A stretch of 64,000 nucleotides of DNA from assembly GCA_951406725.2 (NCBI GenBank), contig OX597816.1:158410001-158474000 (forward strand), given 5' to 3'. The notes under the pieces are model-generated. The model had not been told where the DNA came from. It ran no database searches and saw only the letters and a program-made list of their open reading frames with translations. The DNA is from Octopus vulgaris (taxonomy: Eukaryota). Positions 3,441-56,512 of this stretch are shown here, in pieces. A program made the translations under genes and the position numbers. Within the stretch, counting starts at the first letter, position 1. Each line of letters begins with the position of its first letter.

Positions 3441-5713
3441 TCATCATCATCATCATCGTCGTTTAACGTCCGCTTTCCATACTAGCATGGGTTGGACGAT
3501 TTTGACTGAGGGCTGGCGAACGAGATGGCTGCACCAGGCTCCAATCTTGATCTGGCAGGGTTTCTACAGCTCGATGCCCTTCCTAACGCCAACCACTCTG
3601 AAAGTGTAGTGTGTGCTTTTTACGTACCACTGGCACAGGGGCCAGTCAGACGGTACTGGCAACGACCTCGCTCAAATCTTTCTACACATGCCACCAGCAC
3701 AGGTGCCAGTAAGGCGATGTTGGTAACGATCACGCTCAAATGATGCCCTTTTACGTGCCACCGGCATGGAAGCTAGTTGGCTGCTCTGGCGACGATCACG
3801 CTTGGATGGTGCTCTTGGCACCGTACTAGCACAGGCACAAGTGCCAGTAAGGCAACGCTGGTAACAATCACACTCGAATGGTGCCTTTTATGTGCCACTG
3901 GCACAGAAGCCAGTTAGCTGCTCTGTCAACGATCACGCTCGTATGGTGCTTTTTGCACTCCGCTAGTACGGATGCCAGTCATCGAATGTGATTTTAATTT
4001 CACTTGCTTCAACAGGTCTTTGCAAGCAGAGTTTAGTGTCCAAGGAAGGAAAAGGTATGCATAAGCGGGCTGGTTACACCCCTGGCATAAGCCACAGGTT
4101 ATGGTCTCATTTGGCTTGCCGGGTCTTTGCAAGCACAGCATATTTCCAAAAGTCTCAGTCGCTAGTCATTTCCTCAGTGGGGCCCAATGTTTGAAGGTCG
4201 TGCTTCACCACTTCATCCCAGGTCTTCCTGGGTCTACCTCTTCCACAGGTTCCCTCAACCGCTAGGGTATGGCACTTTTTCACACAGCCATCCTCCTCCA
4301 TTCTTGCCACATGACCATACCAGCGCAGTTGTCTCTCTTGCACACTACATCTGATGCTTCTTAGCTCCAACATTTCTTTCAAGGTACCTACACTCTGTCT
4401 GCACACTGACATTACACATCCATTGGATCATACTGGCTTCATTCCTTGTGGGCTTACACATATCCTCAGCAGTTACGGCCCATGTTTCACTGCCATGTAG
4501 CATAGCTGTTTGTACACAAGCGTCATACAGTCTACCTTTTACTCTGAGCGAGAGACCCTTTGTTGCCAGCAGTGGTAAGAGCTCTCTGAACTTTGCCCAA
4601 GCTATTCTTATTCTAGCAGCTACACTTTCAGTGCATCCACCTCCACTACTGACTTGGTCACCTAGGTAATGGAAGCTATCAACTACTTCTAGTTTTTCTC
4701 CCTGGAATGTAGCGGAAGTTGGTCTCTGCCGTGTTTATTGCTCCCGAGCATCTGCCACATACAAAAGCTATCTTCCCAGTTAACCTTCCTTTGATATGAC
4801 TGCACCTCTTATGTGTCAATACACTGGGTACATCTTATAGAGTTTCTACCTACGCCTCTACTACAGATTGGACAGGGCCATCTACCTGAAGGGATTTGTA
4901 GTTTGCCTGCCTTCCTACATATTAGGACTTTGGTTTTAGCTAGGTTGATTCTAAGGCCCTTCGATTCTAATCCTTGTTTCCACACTTGAAACTTCTCCTC
5001 TAGTTCTGATAGTGACTCAGCAATAAGAGCAAGGTCATCAGCATAGAGGAGCTCCCAGGGGCATCCTGTCTTGAATTCCTCCGTTATTGCCTGGAAGACT
5101 ATGATAATAGGTGGGGGCTGGGGACTGAACCTTGGTGGACCCCTACCTCTACCCTGAATTCTTCAGTGTACTCGTTGCCAACCCTCACCTTACTTACAGC
5201 GTCCCTGTACATGGCTTGCACAGCTCTCACTAACCATTCATCTATCCCTAGTTTCCTCATTGACCACCAGATAAGGGATCGGGGGACCCTGTCAAAGGCT
5301 TTCTCCATGTCAACGAAAGCCAGGTACAGGGGCTTATCCTTGACTAGGTATTTCTCCTGCAGCTGTCTCACCAGAAATATGGCATCAGTGGTGCTTTTTC
5401 CTGGCACGAAACCAAACTGCATCTCATCCAAGCTGACTCTCTCCCTAATCAGTTGGGCTATGACCCTCTCCGTAACCTTCATTACCTGATCCAACAGCTT
5501 GATACCTCTGTAATTATTTGTATCTAAAGTGTCACCTTTACCTTTGTAGCAGTTGACTATTATGCTGCCACACCAATAATTGGGTATGACTCCTTCGTGT
5601 ATCACCTGGTTAACTATACGGGTGACTAGGCTATAGCCAACACTGCCAGATATTTTGAGCATCTCTGCAGCAATTCCTGATGGGCCTGGAGCTTTCCCTG
5701 TCTTCATGCTTCT
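3441..5713 (-). mobile_element. RTE-clade LINE, 5'-truncated, disrupted reverse transcriptase plus 3'UTR and (GAT)n tail
   Basis: ORF 5099-5782 carries NYRGIKLL, QFGFVPGKSTTDAIF, AFVDMEKAFDRV and GVHQGS. ELLYADDLALIAE lies near 5020-5055 after a frameshift. LRWYGHVARM/GRPRKTW lies at 4155-4412. (CAT)n on + at 3441-3456. Confidence 0.93.
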
Positions 5714-5714
5714 A

Positions 5715-5870
5715 ATATATATATATATACATACATATATATGACGGGCTTCTTTCAGTTTCTGTCTACCAAATCCACTCACAAGGCTTTGGTTGGCCAG
5801 AGGCTATAGTAGAAGACACTTGTCCAAGGTGCCATGCAGTGGGACTGAACCCGGAGCCATGTGGTTGGTA
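5715..5870 (-). mobile_element. SINE family A, 5' half
   Basis: Continues the SINE interrupted at 3440. Confidence 0.8.
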
Positions 5871-7623: not shown

Positions 7624-8268
7624 CTTTTCTACTCTAGGCACAAGGCCTAAAATTTTTGGGGAGGGGGCCAGTCGATTAGATCAACCCCAGTATGCAACTG
7701 GTACTTGATTTATCGACCCCCGAAAGGATGAAAGGCAAAGTTGACTTTGGCAGAATTTGAACTCAGAACATAAAGACAGACAAAATACTGCCAAGCATTT
7801 TGCCCTGCATGCTAACGTTTCTGCCGGCTTACCACCTTTGCCCTGACTTAAATATTCTTTTCTACTCTAGGCACAAGGCCCCAAAAGTTTTGGGTAGGGG
7901 CCCAGTTGATTAGATCAACTCCAGTACACGACTGGTACTTAATTTAACGACCCCAAAAGGATGAAAGGCAAAGTTGACCTCGGCGGAATTTGAATTCAGA
8001 ATGTAAAGACAGATGAAATACTGCTAACATATCTGTCAGCTCGTTGCCTTAAAATAGTTATATTCTTTTCTACTCTAGGAACAAGGCTCGAAATTTTTGA
8101 GGAGGGGGTGGCCAGTCAATTAGATCAACCACAGTATGCAACTGGTACTTAATTTATCGACCCCCAAAAGGATGAAAGCCAAAGTCAGCCTCAGCGGAAT
8201 TTGAACTCAGAACGTAAAGACAGAAGGAATACCGCTAAACATTTTGCCCAGCATGCTAATGTTTCTGC
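7624..8268 (-). mobile_element. Head-to-tail trimer of SINE family B (subfamily B1)
   Basis: Three ~210-230 bp copies. The whole trimer is flanked by a ~22-bp direct repeat TGTTT(C/T)ACTAATAAACTATATT (7602-7623, 8269-8290). Confidence 0.85.
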
Positions 8269-11117: not shown

Positions 11118-11570
11118 ATAATAATAATAATAATGAAATTATTGTATACAGTACTCAGGTGCACCACAACTTGTCAAAAGTGCGTATAAAGCATATGCAG
11201 TAATGTACAAATGTCTGGGAAGTGAATAGTGTATGAGTCAGATACATGCTTGCGTGTGTATAGAGGGGAGAAAATCAGGTATAGTGTTGGCGAATCTCAG
11301 GAAGCATGGAAGTTTTGAAGGATGCAGTGCTCCAACAACTAACAACTGATGCCGGCAATTTGTTCCATACTTCAGCAACTCTTAGCGTGAAAAAATGTTT
11401 CCGAAAGTCATGGAGCTGTGCTGTTTTCTGACTTTGTAAACATGTCTATGGGTGTTAGATAGGTGGAGTTTGAAAAGGTGCTCAGAGTTATTGTTAGTAA
11501 GATGGTTAATAATTTTGCGGGTGTCTGCAAGTCAGCTGCCAGACATCGGAGTTTCAATGTATCCATGCCC
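11118..11570 (-). mobile_element. CR1/L2-type LINE 3' end
   Basis: Reverse-complement homologue of 35480-35917, with (AAT)n tail. Confidence 0.85.
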
Positions 11571-14818: not shown

Positions 14819-15050
14819 AGGCGGCGAGCTGGCAGAAACGTTAGCACACCGGGCGAAATGCGTAGCCGTATTTCGTCTGCCATTTCGTTCTGGGTCCAAA
14901 TTCCGCCGAGGTCGACTTTGCCTTTCATCCTTTTGGGGTCGATAAATTAAGTACCAGTTATGCACTGGGGTCGATATAATCGACTTAATCCGTTTGTCTG
15001 TTCTTGTTTGTCCCCTCTGTGTTTAGCCCCTTGTGGGTAGTAAAGAAATA
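14819..15050 (+). mobile_element. SINE family B (subfamily B2), full-length monomer
   Basis: Runs from head GGCGGCGAGCTGGCAGAAACGTTAG to 3' end GTAAAGAAATA. TSD GATATAGATAGGA on both sides. Confidence 0.88.
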
Positions 15051-18137: not shown

Positions 18138-19102
18138 ATGCAAGGGAAATCACAAGAAAACAAACATATGAATTAATGTAGACTTACCTTGCATTCAATA
18201 TTTCAGGGTTTTGACCCCATTTTCAAGTCAGTTTCTTGAAAATGGGGTCATAACCCCGAAATATTTATTTCTTTATTACCCACGGGGACTAAACATAGAG
18301 GGGACAAACTAGGATAGACAAAGGAATTAAGTCGATTATATCGACCTCGGTGCGTAACTGGTACTTATTTAATTGACTCCGAAAGGATGAAAGGCAAAGT
18401 CGACATCGGCAGAATTTGAACATAACAGCAGACGAAATACCTATTTCTTTACTGCCAACAAGGAGCTACACACAGAGGGGACAAACGGATTAAGTCGATT
18501 ATATCGACCCCAGTGCGTAACTGATACTTGATTTATCGACCCCGAAAGGATGAAAGGCAAAATCGACCTCGGCGGAATTTGACCTCAGAATGTAACGGCA
18601 AGCGAAATACCTATTTCATTATTACCCACAAGGGGCTAAACATAGAGGGGACAAACAAGGACAGACATAGGTATTAAGTCGATTACATCGACCCCAGTGC
18701 GTAACTGGTACTTAATTTATCGACCCCGAAAGGATGAAAGGCAAAGTCGACATCGGCGGAATTTGACCTCAGAATGTAACGGCAAGCGAAATACCTATTT
18801 CTTTATTACCCACAAGCGGCTAAACACAGAGGGGATAAACAAGGACAGACATAGGTATTAAGTCGATTACATCGACCCCAGTGCGTAACTGGTGCTTAAT
18901 TTATCGACCCCGAAAGGTTGAAAGGCAAAGTCGACCTCGGCGGAATTTGAACTCACAACGTAACGCAGACGAAATACCGCTAAGCATTTCGCCGGGCGTG
19001 CTAACGGTTCTGCCGGCTCGCCACCTTATAATCCCGAAATATTGAATGCAAGGTAAGTCTACATTAATTCATATATTTGTTTTCTTGGAATTTGCTTTGC
19101 AT
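18138..19102. repeat. ~187-bp palindrome (arms ~90 bp, loop 18228-18234) interrupted by a SINE tetramer
   Basis: 18138-18227 is the reverse complement of 18235-18265 joined to 19044-19102. Confidence 0.85.
18266..19027 (-). mobile_element. Head-to-tail tetramer of SINE B2
   Basis: Junctions GAAATAC|CTATTTC at 18440, 18610 and 18794. TSD ATAA(C/T)CCCGAAATATT at 18250-18265 and 19028-19043. Confidence 0.9.
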
Positions 19103-30917: not shown

Positions 30918-31806
30918 ACATCGACCCCAGTGCATAACTGGTACTTATTTAATCGACCCCGAAAGGATGAAAGGCAAAGTCGACCTCGGTGGAATTTGAA
31001 CTCAGAACGTAGCGGCAGACGAAATACCTATTTCTTTACTACCCACAAGGGGCTAAACACAGAGGGGACAAACAAGGACAGATAAACGGATTAAGTCGAT
31101 TACATCGACCCCAGTGCGTAACTGGTACTTATTTAATCGACCCTGAAAGGATGAAAGGCAAAGTCGACCTCGGCGGAATTTGAACTCAGAACGTAGCGGC
31201 AGACGAAATACCTATTTCTTTACTACCCACAAGGGGCTAAACACAGAGGGGACAATCAAGGACAGATAAACGGATTAAGTCGATTACATCGACCCCAGTG
31301 CGTAACTGGTACTTATTTAATCGACCCCGAAAGGATGAAAGGCGAAGTCGATCTCGGCGGAATTTGAACTCAGAACGTAGCGGCAGACGAAATACCTATT
31401 TCTTTACTACCCACAAGGGGCTAAACACAGAGGGGACAAACAAGGACAGATAAACGGATTAAGTCGATTACATCGACCACAGTGCGTAACTGGTATTTAT
31501 TTAATCGACCCCGAAAGGATGAAAGGCGAAGTCGATCTCGGCGGATTTTGAACTCAGAACGTAGCGGCAGACGAAATACCTATTTCTTTACTACCCACAA
31601 GGGGCTAAACACAGAGGGGACAAACAAGGGCAGATAAACGGATTAAGTCGATTACATCGACCCCTATGCGTAACTGGTATTTATTTAATCGACCCCGAAA
31701 GGATGAAAGGCAAAGTCGACCTCGGCGGAATTTGAACGTAGCGACAGACGAAATACCGCTAAGCATTTCGCCCAGCATGCTAACGTTTCTGCCAGATCGC
31801 CGCCTT
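30918..31806 (-). mobile_element. SINE B2 tandem array, 184-bp period (one partial plus four units, one complete head)
   Basis: Junctions at 31027/28, 31211/12, 31395/96 and 31579/80, spaced exactly 184 bp. The full head is present only at 31757-31806. Confidence 0.92.
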
Positions 31807-35134: not shown

Positions 35135-35918
35135 AGGACCTACTCCCTCCACAACACTAGTCTCAAAAAGTCTTCATGTGAACGTGACCTGGGTGTTATT
35201 GTCGACAGTGATTTGCGTTGGACAAAACACATCGCTAAAATTGTCAAGAAGGCTGAGGGTGTCTTGGCATCACTCACCAAATCCTTTGTGAGCCGCTCTC
35301 CGACTATCTATCTGCGGCTTCATACAGCTATGGTAAGACCTCACTTGGAATTTGCATCACCGGCCTGGAGCCCCTATCTTGCCCAGGATATCAATCGTCT
35401 GGAAGCTGTTCAGCGACGTGCAACCAAAAGAATACCCTCCATCAGGCATTTGCCATATCCTGAACGCCTTACTTCCCTGGGCATGGACACATTGAAACTC
35501 CGACGTCTGGCAGCTGACTTGGCAGACACACATAAAATTATCAACCATCGTACAAACAATAACTCTGAGCACCTTTTCAAACTCCACCCATCTAACACCC
35601 GTGGACATATTTACAAAGTCAGAAAACAGCACAGCTCCCATGACTTCAGGAAACATTTTTTCACGCTGAGAGTTGCTGAAGCATGGAACAAACAGCCGGC
35701 ATCAGTTGTTAGTTGTCGGAGCACTGCATCCTTCAAAACTTCCATGCTTCCTGAGATTCGCCAACACTACACCTGATTTTCTCCCCTCCATACACACACA
35801 AGCATGTATCTGACTCATGCATTGTTCGCTTTCCAGACATTTGTACATTACTGCATATACTCTGACAAGTTGTGGTGCACCTGAGCACTGTATACAATAA
35901 TTTCATTATTATTATTAT
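35135..35918 (+). mobile_element. CR1/L2-type LINE, 5'-truncated, ORF2 C-terminus plus (ATT)n tail
   Basis: ERDLGVIVDSDLRW, VRPHLEFASPAWSP, LEAVQRRATK, TRGH and FFTLRVAEAWN motifs (ORF 35213-35776). Confidence 0.92.
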
Positions 35919-36145: not shown

Positions 36146-36550
36146 CTATTTCTTTACTACCCACAAGGGGCTAAACACAGAGAGGACAAACAAGGACAGA
36201 CAAACGGATTAAATAAGTACCAGTTACGCACTGGTGCGTAACTGGTACTTATTTAATCGACCCCGAAAGGATGAAAGGCAAAGTCGACCTCGGCGGAATT
36301 TGAACTCAGAACGTAACGGCACACGAAATACTTATTTCTTTACTACTCACATGGGGCTAAACAAGGACAGACAAACGGATTAAGTCGATTATATCGACCC
36401 CAGTGCGTAACTGGTACTTATTTAATCGACCCCGAAAGGATGAAAGGCAAAGTCGACCTCGGCGGAATTTGAACTCAGAACGTAACGGCAGACGAAATAC
36501 CACTAGGCATTTCGCCCGGCGTGCTAACGCTTCTGCCAGCTCACTGCCTT
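36146..36550 (-). mobile_element. SINE B2 dimer
   Basis: Junction GAAATAC|TTATTTC at ~36331; a single head at 36500-36550. Confidence 0.85.
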
Positions 36551-42359: not shown

Positions 42360-42851
42360 GAAATTTGGAGGAGGGAATAGTCGATTACATCGACCCAGTA
42401 CTCGACTGGTGCTTGATTTATCAACCCCGAAAGGATGAGAGGTAAAGTCGACCTCGGCGGAATTTGAACTCAGAACGTAGCGGCGAGCGAAATACATATT
42501 TCTTTACTACCCATATGGGGCTAAACACAGAAAGGACAAACAAGGACAAACAAACGGATTAAGTCGATTATATCGACCACAGTGCGTAACTGGTACTTAT
42601 TTAATCAACCCCAAAAGGACGAAAGGCAAAGTCGACCTCGGCGGAATTTGAACTCAGAACGTAGCGGCAGACGAAATACCGCTAAGCATTTCGCCCGGCG
42701 TGCAAACGTTTCTTATTTCTTGAATGCCCACAAAGGGCTACACACAGGGGACAAACAAGAACAGACAAAGGGATTAAGTCGATTAGATCGACCTCAGCGC
42801 GTAACTGGTACTTAATTTATCGTGCTAACGTTTCTGCCAGCTCGCCGCCTT
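42360..42851 (-). mobile_element. Composite SINE B cluster: B1 plus B2 plus a nested truncated B2
   Basis: Junction GAAATAC|ATATTTC at ~42495. Nested insert 42713-42821 flanked by GTGC(A/T)AACGTTTC. Confidence 0.85.
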
Positions 42852-48204: not shown

Positions 48205-48600
48205 TAATCCTTTCTACTATAGGCACAAGGGCTGAAATTGTTGGGGAGAGAACTAGTCAATTACATCGACTCTGTGTTTTACTGATATTTAATTTATCGA
48301 CCTCGAAAGGATGAAAGGCAAAGTCGACCTCAGCGAAATTTGAACTCAGAACATAGCGGTGGATGAAAAGCCGCTAAGCATTTTGCTTATTTCTTTACTG
48401 CCCACTAGGGGCTACACACAGAGGAGACAAACAAGGACAGACAAACGGATTAAGTCGATTATATCGACCCCAGTGCGTAACTGGTACTTATTTAATCGAC
48501 CCCGAAAGGATGAAAGGCAAAGTCGACCTCGGGGGAATTTGAACTCAGAACGTAGCGGTAGACGAAATACCGCTAAGCATTTCGCCCGGCGTGCTAACAT
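48205..48600 (-). mobile_element. SINE B1 plus B2 dimer
   Basis: Junction GCTAAGCATTTTGC|TTATTTC at ~48386. Confidence 0.82.
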
Positions 48601-49953
48601 CTCTTTCCTTTAGACGAAGTCTATTCATAACATAAGCGGTTTACCGGTGCAAGAAATGAACAAACAAATTATTTGTTGATGTGTGCTAATATCTGCCTAC
48701 CAGATAGATAATTTATGAGGTGCACACAGAACAGTGAGAATGCAAACAAGATCTGTGATCGTGTTAAATTCATCGGTCCAACGTGGATGATTTGACTGAG
48801 GAGTCACACAATAAGGTCGAAACACTACGGTGTCTCAAAGTCCCCTTATACAGTGAATCGTGTATGTTATGAACTCAGATCGTCTAAAGGGAGGAAATGT
48901 TTTCTGATGATGAAAAACAGCAGCGATCTGCTATTCACGTTCGAAGCCACTCGAACGTATTGAGAATGAATGCGTTATTGTTTGGATTGCCGCTGTTCTG
49001 CGTACATTTAATGAATGATTGATTGAAACTTATTATTGATATAGATATTAATTTCCAATAGTGATGCATTCCCTCAAATTTTGGAGCAGGAGAAATGACA
49101 ATTATATCAACCTCTGTACTTGACTGGTACTTTATTTTATCAATCCTTATAGAATAAGGTTTACCATTGTGGGATTCAAATGTCAGAAACGTAAAGTGGT
49201 GTAACTAAATGCTGCATGATACTTCAATCAACATTCAACCAGTTCTACTAATTAATCGTCTTTTTATCTGCTACGCATCATATTCTACTTATTAACTTCT
49301 AGGTTATCCACCATTCTAACGATCCTACCAGTCCACAACCATTATATTAAGCAGTTTATTAATTCTGTCACTCTGCAGTGAATATTGTAAATATGCACAC
49401 TTGAGAACAAAGGAATAATTATCGCCATCATTACTGCTTCCATTTCCTTCAGTTATTGGTTTTGTCGGGAGTGTTGCTGGCATGCCGTGTCATCAGATGT
49501 TATTGTGCTTTGTCGATGCTGCTGTGGTTGGTGTTTGAGTTATAATCAATGAAAATGTTTCATGAGCTGCGTGAAGAAGTAAATGAACGACATCCACGAA
49601 CATTTAACAGAAGAAGACAAACAGCGCTGGCCTTTTACAGTTAACAACAGCAATAATTACATATTGGGTGAGAGATACTGCTCTGAGTTTACATGGCTTG
49701 CTCAACATATCTGAAAACAATTGCGCTATCTTCGTGATGACGGAAGTTTCTGGTTATCTATCTGCGCCTTCTGTCTTAGCTGCCTTCTTGGCTTGTCTGG
49801 TTGGGCCTTCTGTTAGCAAGAGTGTAGGCGCATATTGCTCAGCAACTCTTTCAACACTCTGCGATTAATTAAAAGTGGCCTTTTATAGGGCACAAAAAGG
49901 TTCTAAAGACTGAATAACGCGATGGCTTGATGTTGAGGATTGCTTAATAGACT

Positions 49954-56134: not shown

Positions 56135-56512
56135 TTATTTCTTTATTGCCCATATGAGGCTAAACGTAGAGCGGACAAACAAGGACAGACAAAAGGATTA
56201 AGTTGATTACATCGACCCCAGTGCGTAACTGGTACTTAATTTATCGACCCTGAAAGGATGAAAGGCAAAGTCGACTTCAGCGGAATTTAAACTCAGAACG
56301 TAATGGCAGACAAAATACCTATTTCTTTACTACCCACAAAGGGCTAAAGACAGGGGACAAACAAGGACAGACATAGGTATTAAGTCGATTACATCGACCC
56401 CAGTGCATAACTGGTACTTAATTTATCGACCCCGAAAGGATGAAAGGCAAAGTCGACCTCGGCGGAATTTGAACTCAGAACGTAATGACAGACAAAATAC
56501 CGCTAAGCATTT
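56135..56512 (-). mobile_element. SINE B2 dimer
   Basis: Junction AAAATAC|CTATTTC at ~56318. Confidence 0.85.

Follow-up and report, generated by a model that had tools for sequence, protein, structure and literature searches.

A young octopus SINE joined to related copies at one fixed nucleotide of their head: arrays probably seeded by insertion into resident copies

The array at 30918–31806 and the other SINE loci of the window

The window, a stretch of 64,000 nucleotides of Octopus vulgaris DNA in G000:C3, carries a head-to-tail SINE array on the minus strand at 30918–31806. A consensus of 231 nt was obtained from 148 full-length copies of the SINE; positions 48–231 correspond to a unit of 184 nt. 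The break between AAATA and GGTATTTCG was assigned to consensus position 48 because monomers end at AAAGAAATA. The sole head of the array (31758–31804; consensus 1–47) contains the A-box-like motif TGGCAGAAACG; an inverted repeat, CGAAATGC-TTAGCG-GTATTTCG, occupies 31749–31770, and the target motif GGTAT begins at 31757, which is consensus position 48. Unit 1 (31581–31757; consensus 48–231 minus 7 nt through a deletion) has retained the B-box-like motif GTTCAAATTCC and has the 3′ end AAAGAAATA. It is followed by three units of 184 bp: unit 2 (31397–31580), unit 3 (31213–31396), which has the rare variants 92A, 100C and 177A in common with unit 2, and unit 4 (31029–31212), which has 177A in common with units 1–3. 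Unit 5 (30918–31028) stops at about consensus position 157. Units 2–4 differ pairwise at 4–6 positions per 184; variant 177A, present in units 1–4, is rare overall (10 of 330 units), and other variants are patchily shared. The long-tail 3′ ends at 31581, 31397, 31213 and 31029 (minus strand) are each spaced by 184 and the only head starts at 31804, in agreement with the original prediction of an exact 184-bp period and a head confined to the 5′-most copy. Neither a tail nor an outer target-site duplication (TSD) was found for unit 5; the host family of this array therefore cannot be named, and its seeding is inferred from other loci.

The other arrays of the window also lie on the minus strand. 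Four units with three joins at position 48 are present at 18266–19025, 12–25 differences apart and with an outer TSD, AATATTTCGGG(A/G)TTAT (16 bp, 1 mismatch). Dimers with a single 48-join were found at 36147–36548 and, with a partial head and units 20/182 apart, at 56136–56512. At 42360–42849, head positions 1–27 are followed by a 5′-truncated C-type copy inserted at position 15, with duplicated AGAAACGTT(A/T)GCA, and then by a unit of short-tail-type core, attached through a 48-join; both a 15-join and a 48-join are thus present in one locus (42360–42851). At 48205–48604 an older short-tail unit follows a long-tail copy, with the join at position 33. A full-length monomer on the plus strand (14820–15050) has a 14-bp TSD, AGATATAGATAGGA (GATAT, a near match to GGTAT). 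Ten position-48 joins (3+4+1+1+1) were counted at the five loci for which head-to-tail arrays with ten fixed-point junctions had been predicted; in two of the ten, T or A replaces the first G. The expectation of one fixed point of joining holds in that position 48 is dominant, but this position is not unique, joins being found also at 15 and 33.

Within unit 2 of the dimer at 36147–36548 there is a small internal inversion (36207–36230). Full-length short-tail copies, at 7670–8268 and among the short-tail matches listed, often stand head-to-tail with few AT-rich bases between them and form a second, looser tandem. Fragments of a young, abundant LINE family (949-aa frame, (ATT)n tail) and of a second RT element were located at 35138–35773, 11278–11531 and 5114–5716 and in L273–L295.

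Junction frequency and target motif

The genome-wide count of junctions that the original prediction had called for gave 44,881 exact matches to the 18-mer junction AAAGAAATAGGTATTTCG in the 2.8-Gb genome, and 0 matches to the reversed-pattern control. Of 61 long-tail 3′ ends in 664 kb, made up of the window and three unselected 200-kb blocks, 31 are joined to position 48, 5 to position 15 and 1 to position 33, and 24 enter flanking DNA; without the window the corresponding numbers are 21, 4, 0 and 20 (n=45). About half of the young SINE copies are fused with relatives at a single fixed nucleotide. The site depends on the subfamily: among 106,996 exact T-type tails in the genome, 38,694 are joined exactly at 48 and 485 at 15, whereas exact joins of the CAA-type tail number 716 at 48 and 2,411 at 15 (odds ratio about 270). 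In the sister subfamily the start is AGAAA and the join falls at position 15 in place of 48. Ends of the short-tail family showed 0 joins at 48 among the 100 matches listed.

TSDs were detected in 30 of 50 monomers and in 0 of the shuffled control. Their 5′ copy, which is derived from the target, begins GGTAT-, TATAT-, AATAT- or AGAAA-like, some monomer loci in this survey having been preselected for GGTAT on the 3′ side. T-type ends at loci that were not preselected matched G, G, T, A and T in 21, 13, 21, 22 and 22 of 28 cases, and the match of the flank was near background past base 5. G was the first flanking base at 21/28 T-type but 9/39 C-type ends (p=5e-5). Ordinary insertions of the young subfamily also start at GGTAT, and the GGTAT motif at position 48 is a DNA target.

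Heads interrupted at this position were searched for with a pattern of head, GGTATTTCG, 0–16 arbitrary nucleotides and a new head, which gave 91 matches genome-wide and 0 in the control. Thirty of these loci, representing 23 distinct places, were fetched. At 19 of the 23, a host head is followed by a 14–17 bp TSD, a full-length long-tail insert and the host resuming at position 48; the other four comprise one insertion elsewhere, one C-type copy and two short-tail inserts. Variants private to the host flank the insert on both sides in L098, L102, L105, L110 and L113. Such unsealed events, in which host head and TSD are retained, are a minority, with 4 among 90 oldest-family loci and 1 among the 104 other arrays.

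Host choice depends on sequence. Joins in copies of the oldest family number 245 with GGTAT and 22 with GGCAT, even though C is present in 27 and T in 5 of 40 monomers of this family. Heads are also strongly preferred: in 600 kb, about 28 head sites carry 21 joins, whereas the roughly 940 remaining GGTAT sites carry 3 insertions, an enrichment of about 200-fold that is inflated somewhat by local duplication. Pairing over five bases does not explain this enrichment; more extensive pairing, a more efficient completion where there is homology, and Pol III chromatin are possible contributors.

The junction had been predicted to lie at the loop of a hairpin at the anticodon-arm position of a tRNA-like head. 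The inverted repeat is present, but its DNA fold is no better than that of shuffled sequences (z −0.52), and the hairpin was rejected as the determinant of the site on this ground and because GGCAT heads pair better in the stem yet are less often joined. GGCAT is found on both sides of the join in L450 and L454, and is therefore not simply overwritten; in L321 and L404 the two sides differ. ARAGORN and Rfam each gave 0 matches for a tRNA-like head or anticodon arm, and box-like motifs were recognised by eye at consensus 11–21 and 75–85. Inverted priming through the complementarity of GAAATA and TATTTC was rejected as well, 0 inverted joins having been found.

Further arrangements were noted. 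At L208 (G000:C1:1948009) a long-tail copy with a TSD is inserted at GGTAC in the antisense strand of another SINE copy. The head-plus-TSD segment (65–67 nt) of an unsealed 48 insertion is tandemly amplified in L113–L119 (G000:C5:87874181-87875489), in L096/L097 and in L103, and a 27-nt version of it occurs in L123–L126.

Age of the hosts and origin of the arrays

The 664 kb contain 25 multi-unit loci, and in 13 of them the last unit is headless and belongs to an older short-tail family. The 54 older last units examined belong to at least three families and form no sibling clusters; among older last units, 6 of 703 pairs were sibling-like, and all are different. The age of the outer TSD was determined for arrays ending in the oldest family. 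From 245 such loci, 90 were taken. Of these, 75 carried a head but showed no retained host head, and a complete 5′ end together with a non-repetitive flank was present in 45 of the 75. In the 75 arrays, first units are young (divergence 0.048) and last units old (0.124). The TSD mismatch rate was 0.07 for young monomers (95% interval 0.05–0.10, n=43), 0.18 for the arrays (0.13–0.25, n=45) and 0.21 for oldest-family monomers (0.14–0.29, n=23); the Fisher test gave p=4e-5. The mismatches were distributed along the TSD, and the result was the same with the first three bases skipped. The outer TSD is as old as the oldest-family host and older than those of young monomers; the young unit was therefore a later addition to a copy already resident. 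In the younger short-tail family the signal has the same direction and is weak (1.68 vs 1.25 mismatches, p=0.04, n=38): the test is strong only for the oldest hosts and cannot separate models for dimers of two long-tail units.

We consider it probable that the arrays were seeded by a young long-tailed SINE added, most likely by target-primed reverse transcription, at GGTAT (position 48) of a resident copy of its own or of older families with the same head, and that longer arrays, such as that at 30918–31806, then likely arose by local duplication. This account rests on the fixed site, the later addition to old hosts, the TSDs of 14–17 bp in the unsealed class, the subfamily-specific motifs, the mosaic structure of the heads and the shared rare variants. 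Later addition and the TSD-bearing inserts at 48 also speak for site-specific targeting by the SINE of its own head, which the original prediction had offered as its alternative.

The heads of the 75 arrays are donor-type near the site and partly host-type at the 5′ end. The host share is 0.36 at positions 3–12, 0.51 at 13–22, 0.09–0.18 at 23–42 and about 0 from 43 onwards; positions 5–24 are intermediate between both families (p=0.003 and 0.0008), and positions 37–64 equal the donor. A template switch from one SINE RNA, at position 48, to another that ends in GGUAU, or joining of a cut fragment by RtcB, would insert both units together and account for a single donor-type head, mixed families and the seamless majority of joins; U6/L1 chimeras, reportedly made by RtcB (PMC6789731), provide a precedent. 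Such a route is nevertheless unlikely: it expects a young outer TSD, where 0.18 and not 0.07 was observed, and an all-donor head, where the distal head leans to the host family (T at position 19 in 41/74 array heads vs 14/50, p=0.003), and it leaves the TSD-bearing inserts at 48 unaccounted for.

Gene conversion from a donor array (DNA or multimer cDNA), in which an old copy would be repaired on a dimer template and would inherit the junction, keeps the old TSD and produces a mosaic head, and repair of LINE breaks by conversion is cited in the accessible part of PMC1920257. The starts of the last units in the 75 arrays bear on it in both directions, since 11 begin with the donor-type CCGC but 24 with TCTT and 13 with TCGC, so that the host resumes within about 15 nt of the junction at most loci. 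Conversion as the origin of the arrays is also opposed by the preference for GGTAT hosts (245 vs 22) and by the TSD-bearing inserts and monomer target motifs, which require a nick at 48, and we regard it as quite unlikely. The 11 donor-type starts hint at longer RNA extensions or at later conversion.

Even less probable are a few composite source genes, each a young copy with a downstream unit, transcribed by Pol III read-through and retroposed whole. A run of four T, the terminator, is absent from both consensus sequences, and neighbours in long arrays share rare variants, as this would predict; the 54 older last units are, however, unclustered and from at least three families, and outer TSDs are old. 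Composite sources may contribute to arrays of long-tail units only. The original prediction, that the RNA is cut in the loop and ligated into a 184-nt circle or chained by end-to-end template jumps, is contradicted at datable loci by the mixture of families, the host's age of the outer TSD and the TSD-bearing full-length inserts at exactly 48; a circle copied as in retrozymes would suit the fixed unit ends, a unit that folds with its ends paired and the 4–6/184 differences among units 2–4 at 30918–31806, but it expects identical, headless, permuted units in place of the observed head, mixed families and neighbours differing by 8.2% (random pairs 9.8%), and with no hammerhead core detected by two regular expressions on both strands of the doubled unit or by Rfam (0 matches) it is very improbable. 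Judged from sequence, cleaved or circular RNA would not be needed and does not appear to fit arrays of mixed age.

The insertion into resident copies favoured here may proceed as follows. A LINE enzyme, the putative partner, would nick the head at position 48. The SINE RNA would end in GGUAU, probably because source copies read through into the next unit; as neither consensus contains a four-T run, source copies inside arrays would do so and thereby gain a 3′ extension. The GGUAU end would pair with the nicked strand, and the cDNA, copying the whole head, would anneal to the homologous host head and overwrite it outward from the site, with repair favouring the donor near the site. Annealing of this kind would leave a seamless join and a single head. 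The sister subfamily would take the same route with AGAAA at position 15. A variant in which the host head is kept and sealing occurs only at a 15-nt overhang was rejected, heads of short-tail-ended arrays being mostly donor-like: their divergence is 0.090 (n=44) against 0.080 in young and 0.171 in old monomers, a young-only head variant occurs in 9/44 of them vs 0/83, variants of the last unit at 48–64 (the TSD zone) are rarely present in first units (14/110), and head divergence per locus does not follow the last unit (rho −0.06). Given such donor-like heads at old hosts, a long conversion tract would be needed.

No partner LINE with a shared tail was found in 30 RT loci or beside RT fragments of the sampled DNA. 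Two candidates were rejected, the abundant 949-aa family ending in a different stem and (ATT)n, and RTE-like loci ending in (GATA)n or (GA)n. A CTTGT loop is kept in long-tail and short-tail tails with differing stems (GCCC/GGGY vs AGGC/GCCT; for example at 15026–15050 of the window), and this hairpin is likely the one recognised by the LINE.

Later growth is indicated by the units themselves, the comparison of which within and between arrays had been suggested beforehand. Neighbouring long-tail units differ by 8.2% on average, random pairs by 9.8%, and 2 of 65 neighbouring pairs differ by under 1%. Rare variants are common to neighbours in 4/28 dimers (random 7%), but in 12/30, 13/21, 5/6 and 4/4 cases in arrays of three to six units; longer arrays share them, dimers little. 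Divergence is slightly lower in first than in last long-tail units (0.038 vs 0.048, n=56, p=0.01). Sampled arrays have 2–6 units, with one 8-unit locus, L332. Variant 177A in units 1–4 and the patchwork of shared variants indicate that the array at 30918–31806 most likely expanded in place, either through unequal exchange or because its own transcript was inserted again.

Held more tentatively, at somewhat less than even confidence, is the proposal that the SINE programmes its own target: read-through would equip the 3′ end of the RNA with a guide of at least five bases directed at its own head, and annealing of the cDNA to the head would complete insertion, so that each subfamily homes to one nucleotide of its relatives, replaces old Pol III promoters and seeds tandem repeats. 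Copies landing in heads would gain the 3′ extension that directs their progeny to heads, which would close a feedback loop. If this is true, the self-targeting SINE is a natural RNA-templated, homology-sealed insertion loop that uses a non-site-specific LINE enzyme on a scale of 100,000 copies.

The feature is real and of large scale, and a variant of known retrotransposon biochemistry. A search of the open literature found no description of a SINE that homes to a single nucleotide of its own family; the arrays may be noted elsewhere, in subscription papers, repeat databases or the first paper on octopus SINEs. Self-homing is most likely a route from dispersed to tandem repeats and a case of RNA-guided insertion. 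The route from dispersed SINEs would be a concrete one, the link from SINEs to tandem repeats being poorly evidenced according to the consulted portion of a squamate study (PMC10702118). For non-LTR integration, tens of thousands of natural events bear on the extent to which the RNA 3′ end selects the site and on the way in which the 5′ join is sealed, and the pair of near-identical subfamilies that differ in their site is a ready test case. The feature also suggests that RNA homology can direct an ordinary LINE enzyme. Young SINE promoters overwriting old ones would confuse the dating and counting of repeats in the octopus genome.

Comparison with known systems

In being dispersed, non-coding and of high copy number (106,996 exact T-type tails) and in having TSDs of variable length, the element agrees with LINE-mobilised SINEs. 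Octopus tRNA-derived SINEs, OK, OR1 and OR2, were reportedly described by Ohshima and Okada in 1994; we take the present element to be an octopus SINE. The texts consulted that cite these SINEs do not refer to arrays. The SINE is also of very high copy number in four other organisms (L086:2800-8800, runs X16–X19), with a different tail variant at loose ends in X18. When contigs of the four other runs were searched for orthologous dimer alleles, the matches were swamped by paralogues.

Zepp of Chlorella is said to be a retroelement that accumulates inside its own copies, autonomous, of L1 type and clustered at chromosome domains. Self-insertion is common to both, but the octopus SINE has a fixed five-base site, while Zepp is autonomous and clustered, and we know of no fixed five-base site for it. 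Retrozymes are tandem small units of a non-autonomous retroelement; the octopus SINE differs from them in showing neither a hammerhead core nor long terminal repeats, and in its heterogeneous units and putative Pol III head. In chimeras of the U6/L1 type both parts are inserted together and the TSD has the age of the insertion, whereas the octopus arrays have a TSD of the age of the old unit.

Squamate SINE-derived satellites, as far as the part of PMC10702118 considered here describes them, consist of units repeated in tandem that fall short of the SINE in length, one terminal unit being extended, are explained by duplication and unequal recombination, and form long arrays that are subtelomeric. 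Octopus arrays share the layout of a unit shorter than the SINE and one extended terminal unit with the satellites in that account, but have mostly 2–6 units in the sampled DNA, appear dispersed, mix families and bear an insertion signature. True SINE-derived satellite DNA was also encountered, in the form of a long 115-bp satellite with the 3′ tail of the oldest short-tail SINE family (G000:C1:8504855-8513498 and 7545277-7547485; L436–L445). A 101-bp tandem of the short-tail SINE 3′ part lies at G000:C1:15779660-15780305.

Pairing between the 3′ end of an element and its target is described, in the excerpt of PMC6007223 at hand, for RTE-, L2- and CR1-type elements, the I factor and R1Bm, the start of the TSD matching the 3′ terminal sequence of the element, and coexisting SINE types differ there in TSD start. 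RTE-type pairing, in that description, involves one to few bases of a microsatellite-like tail, whereas the octopus SINE has a five-base motif equal to a site in its own head, and about half of its copies end up in relatives.

The closest parallel is that to R2 elements with upstream 28S sequence, for which, in the available text of PMC3774820, the cDNA is proposed to anneal to the homologous upstream target, with uniform joins and a minority of duplicated-target joins. Set against that text, both systems have a fixed 3′ insertion site, a 5′ join probably sealed by homology and a minority of duplicated-target joins. The octopus SINE is not an R2/SIDE element, and its target is a SINE head in place of 28S rDNA. 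It further differs from R2 in being non-autonomous, in inserting also at ordinary sites with 14–17 bp TSDs, and in that its site follows the 3′ end of the subfamily.
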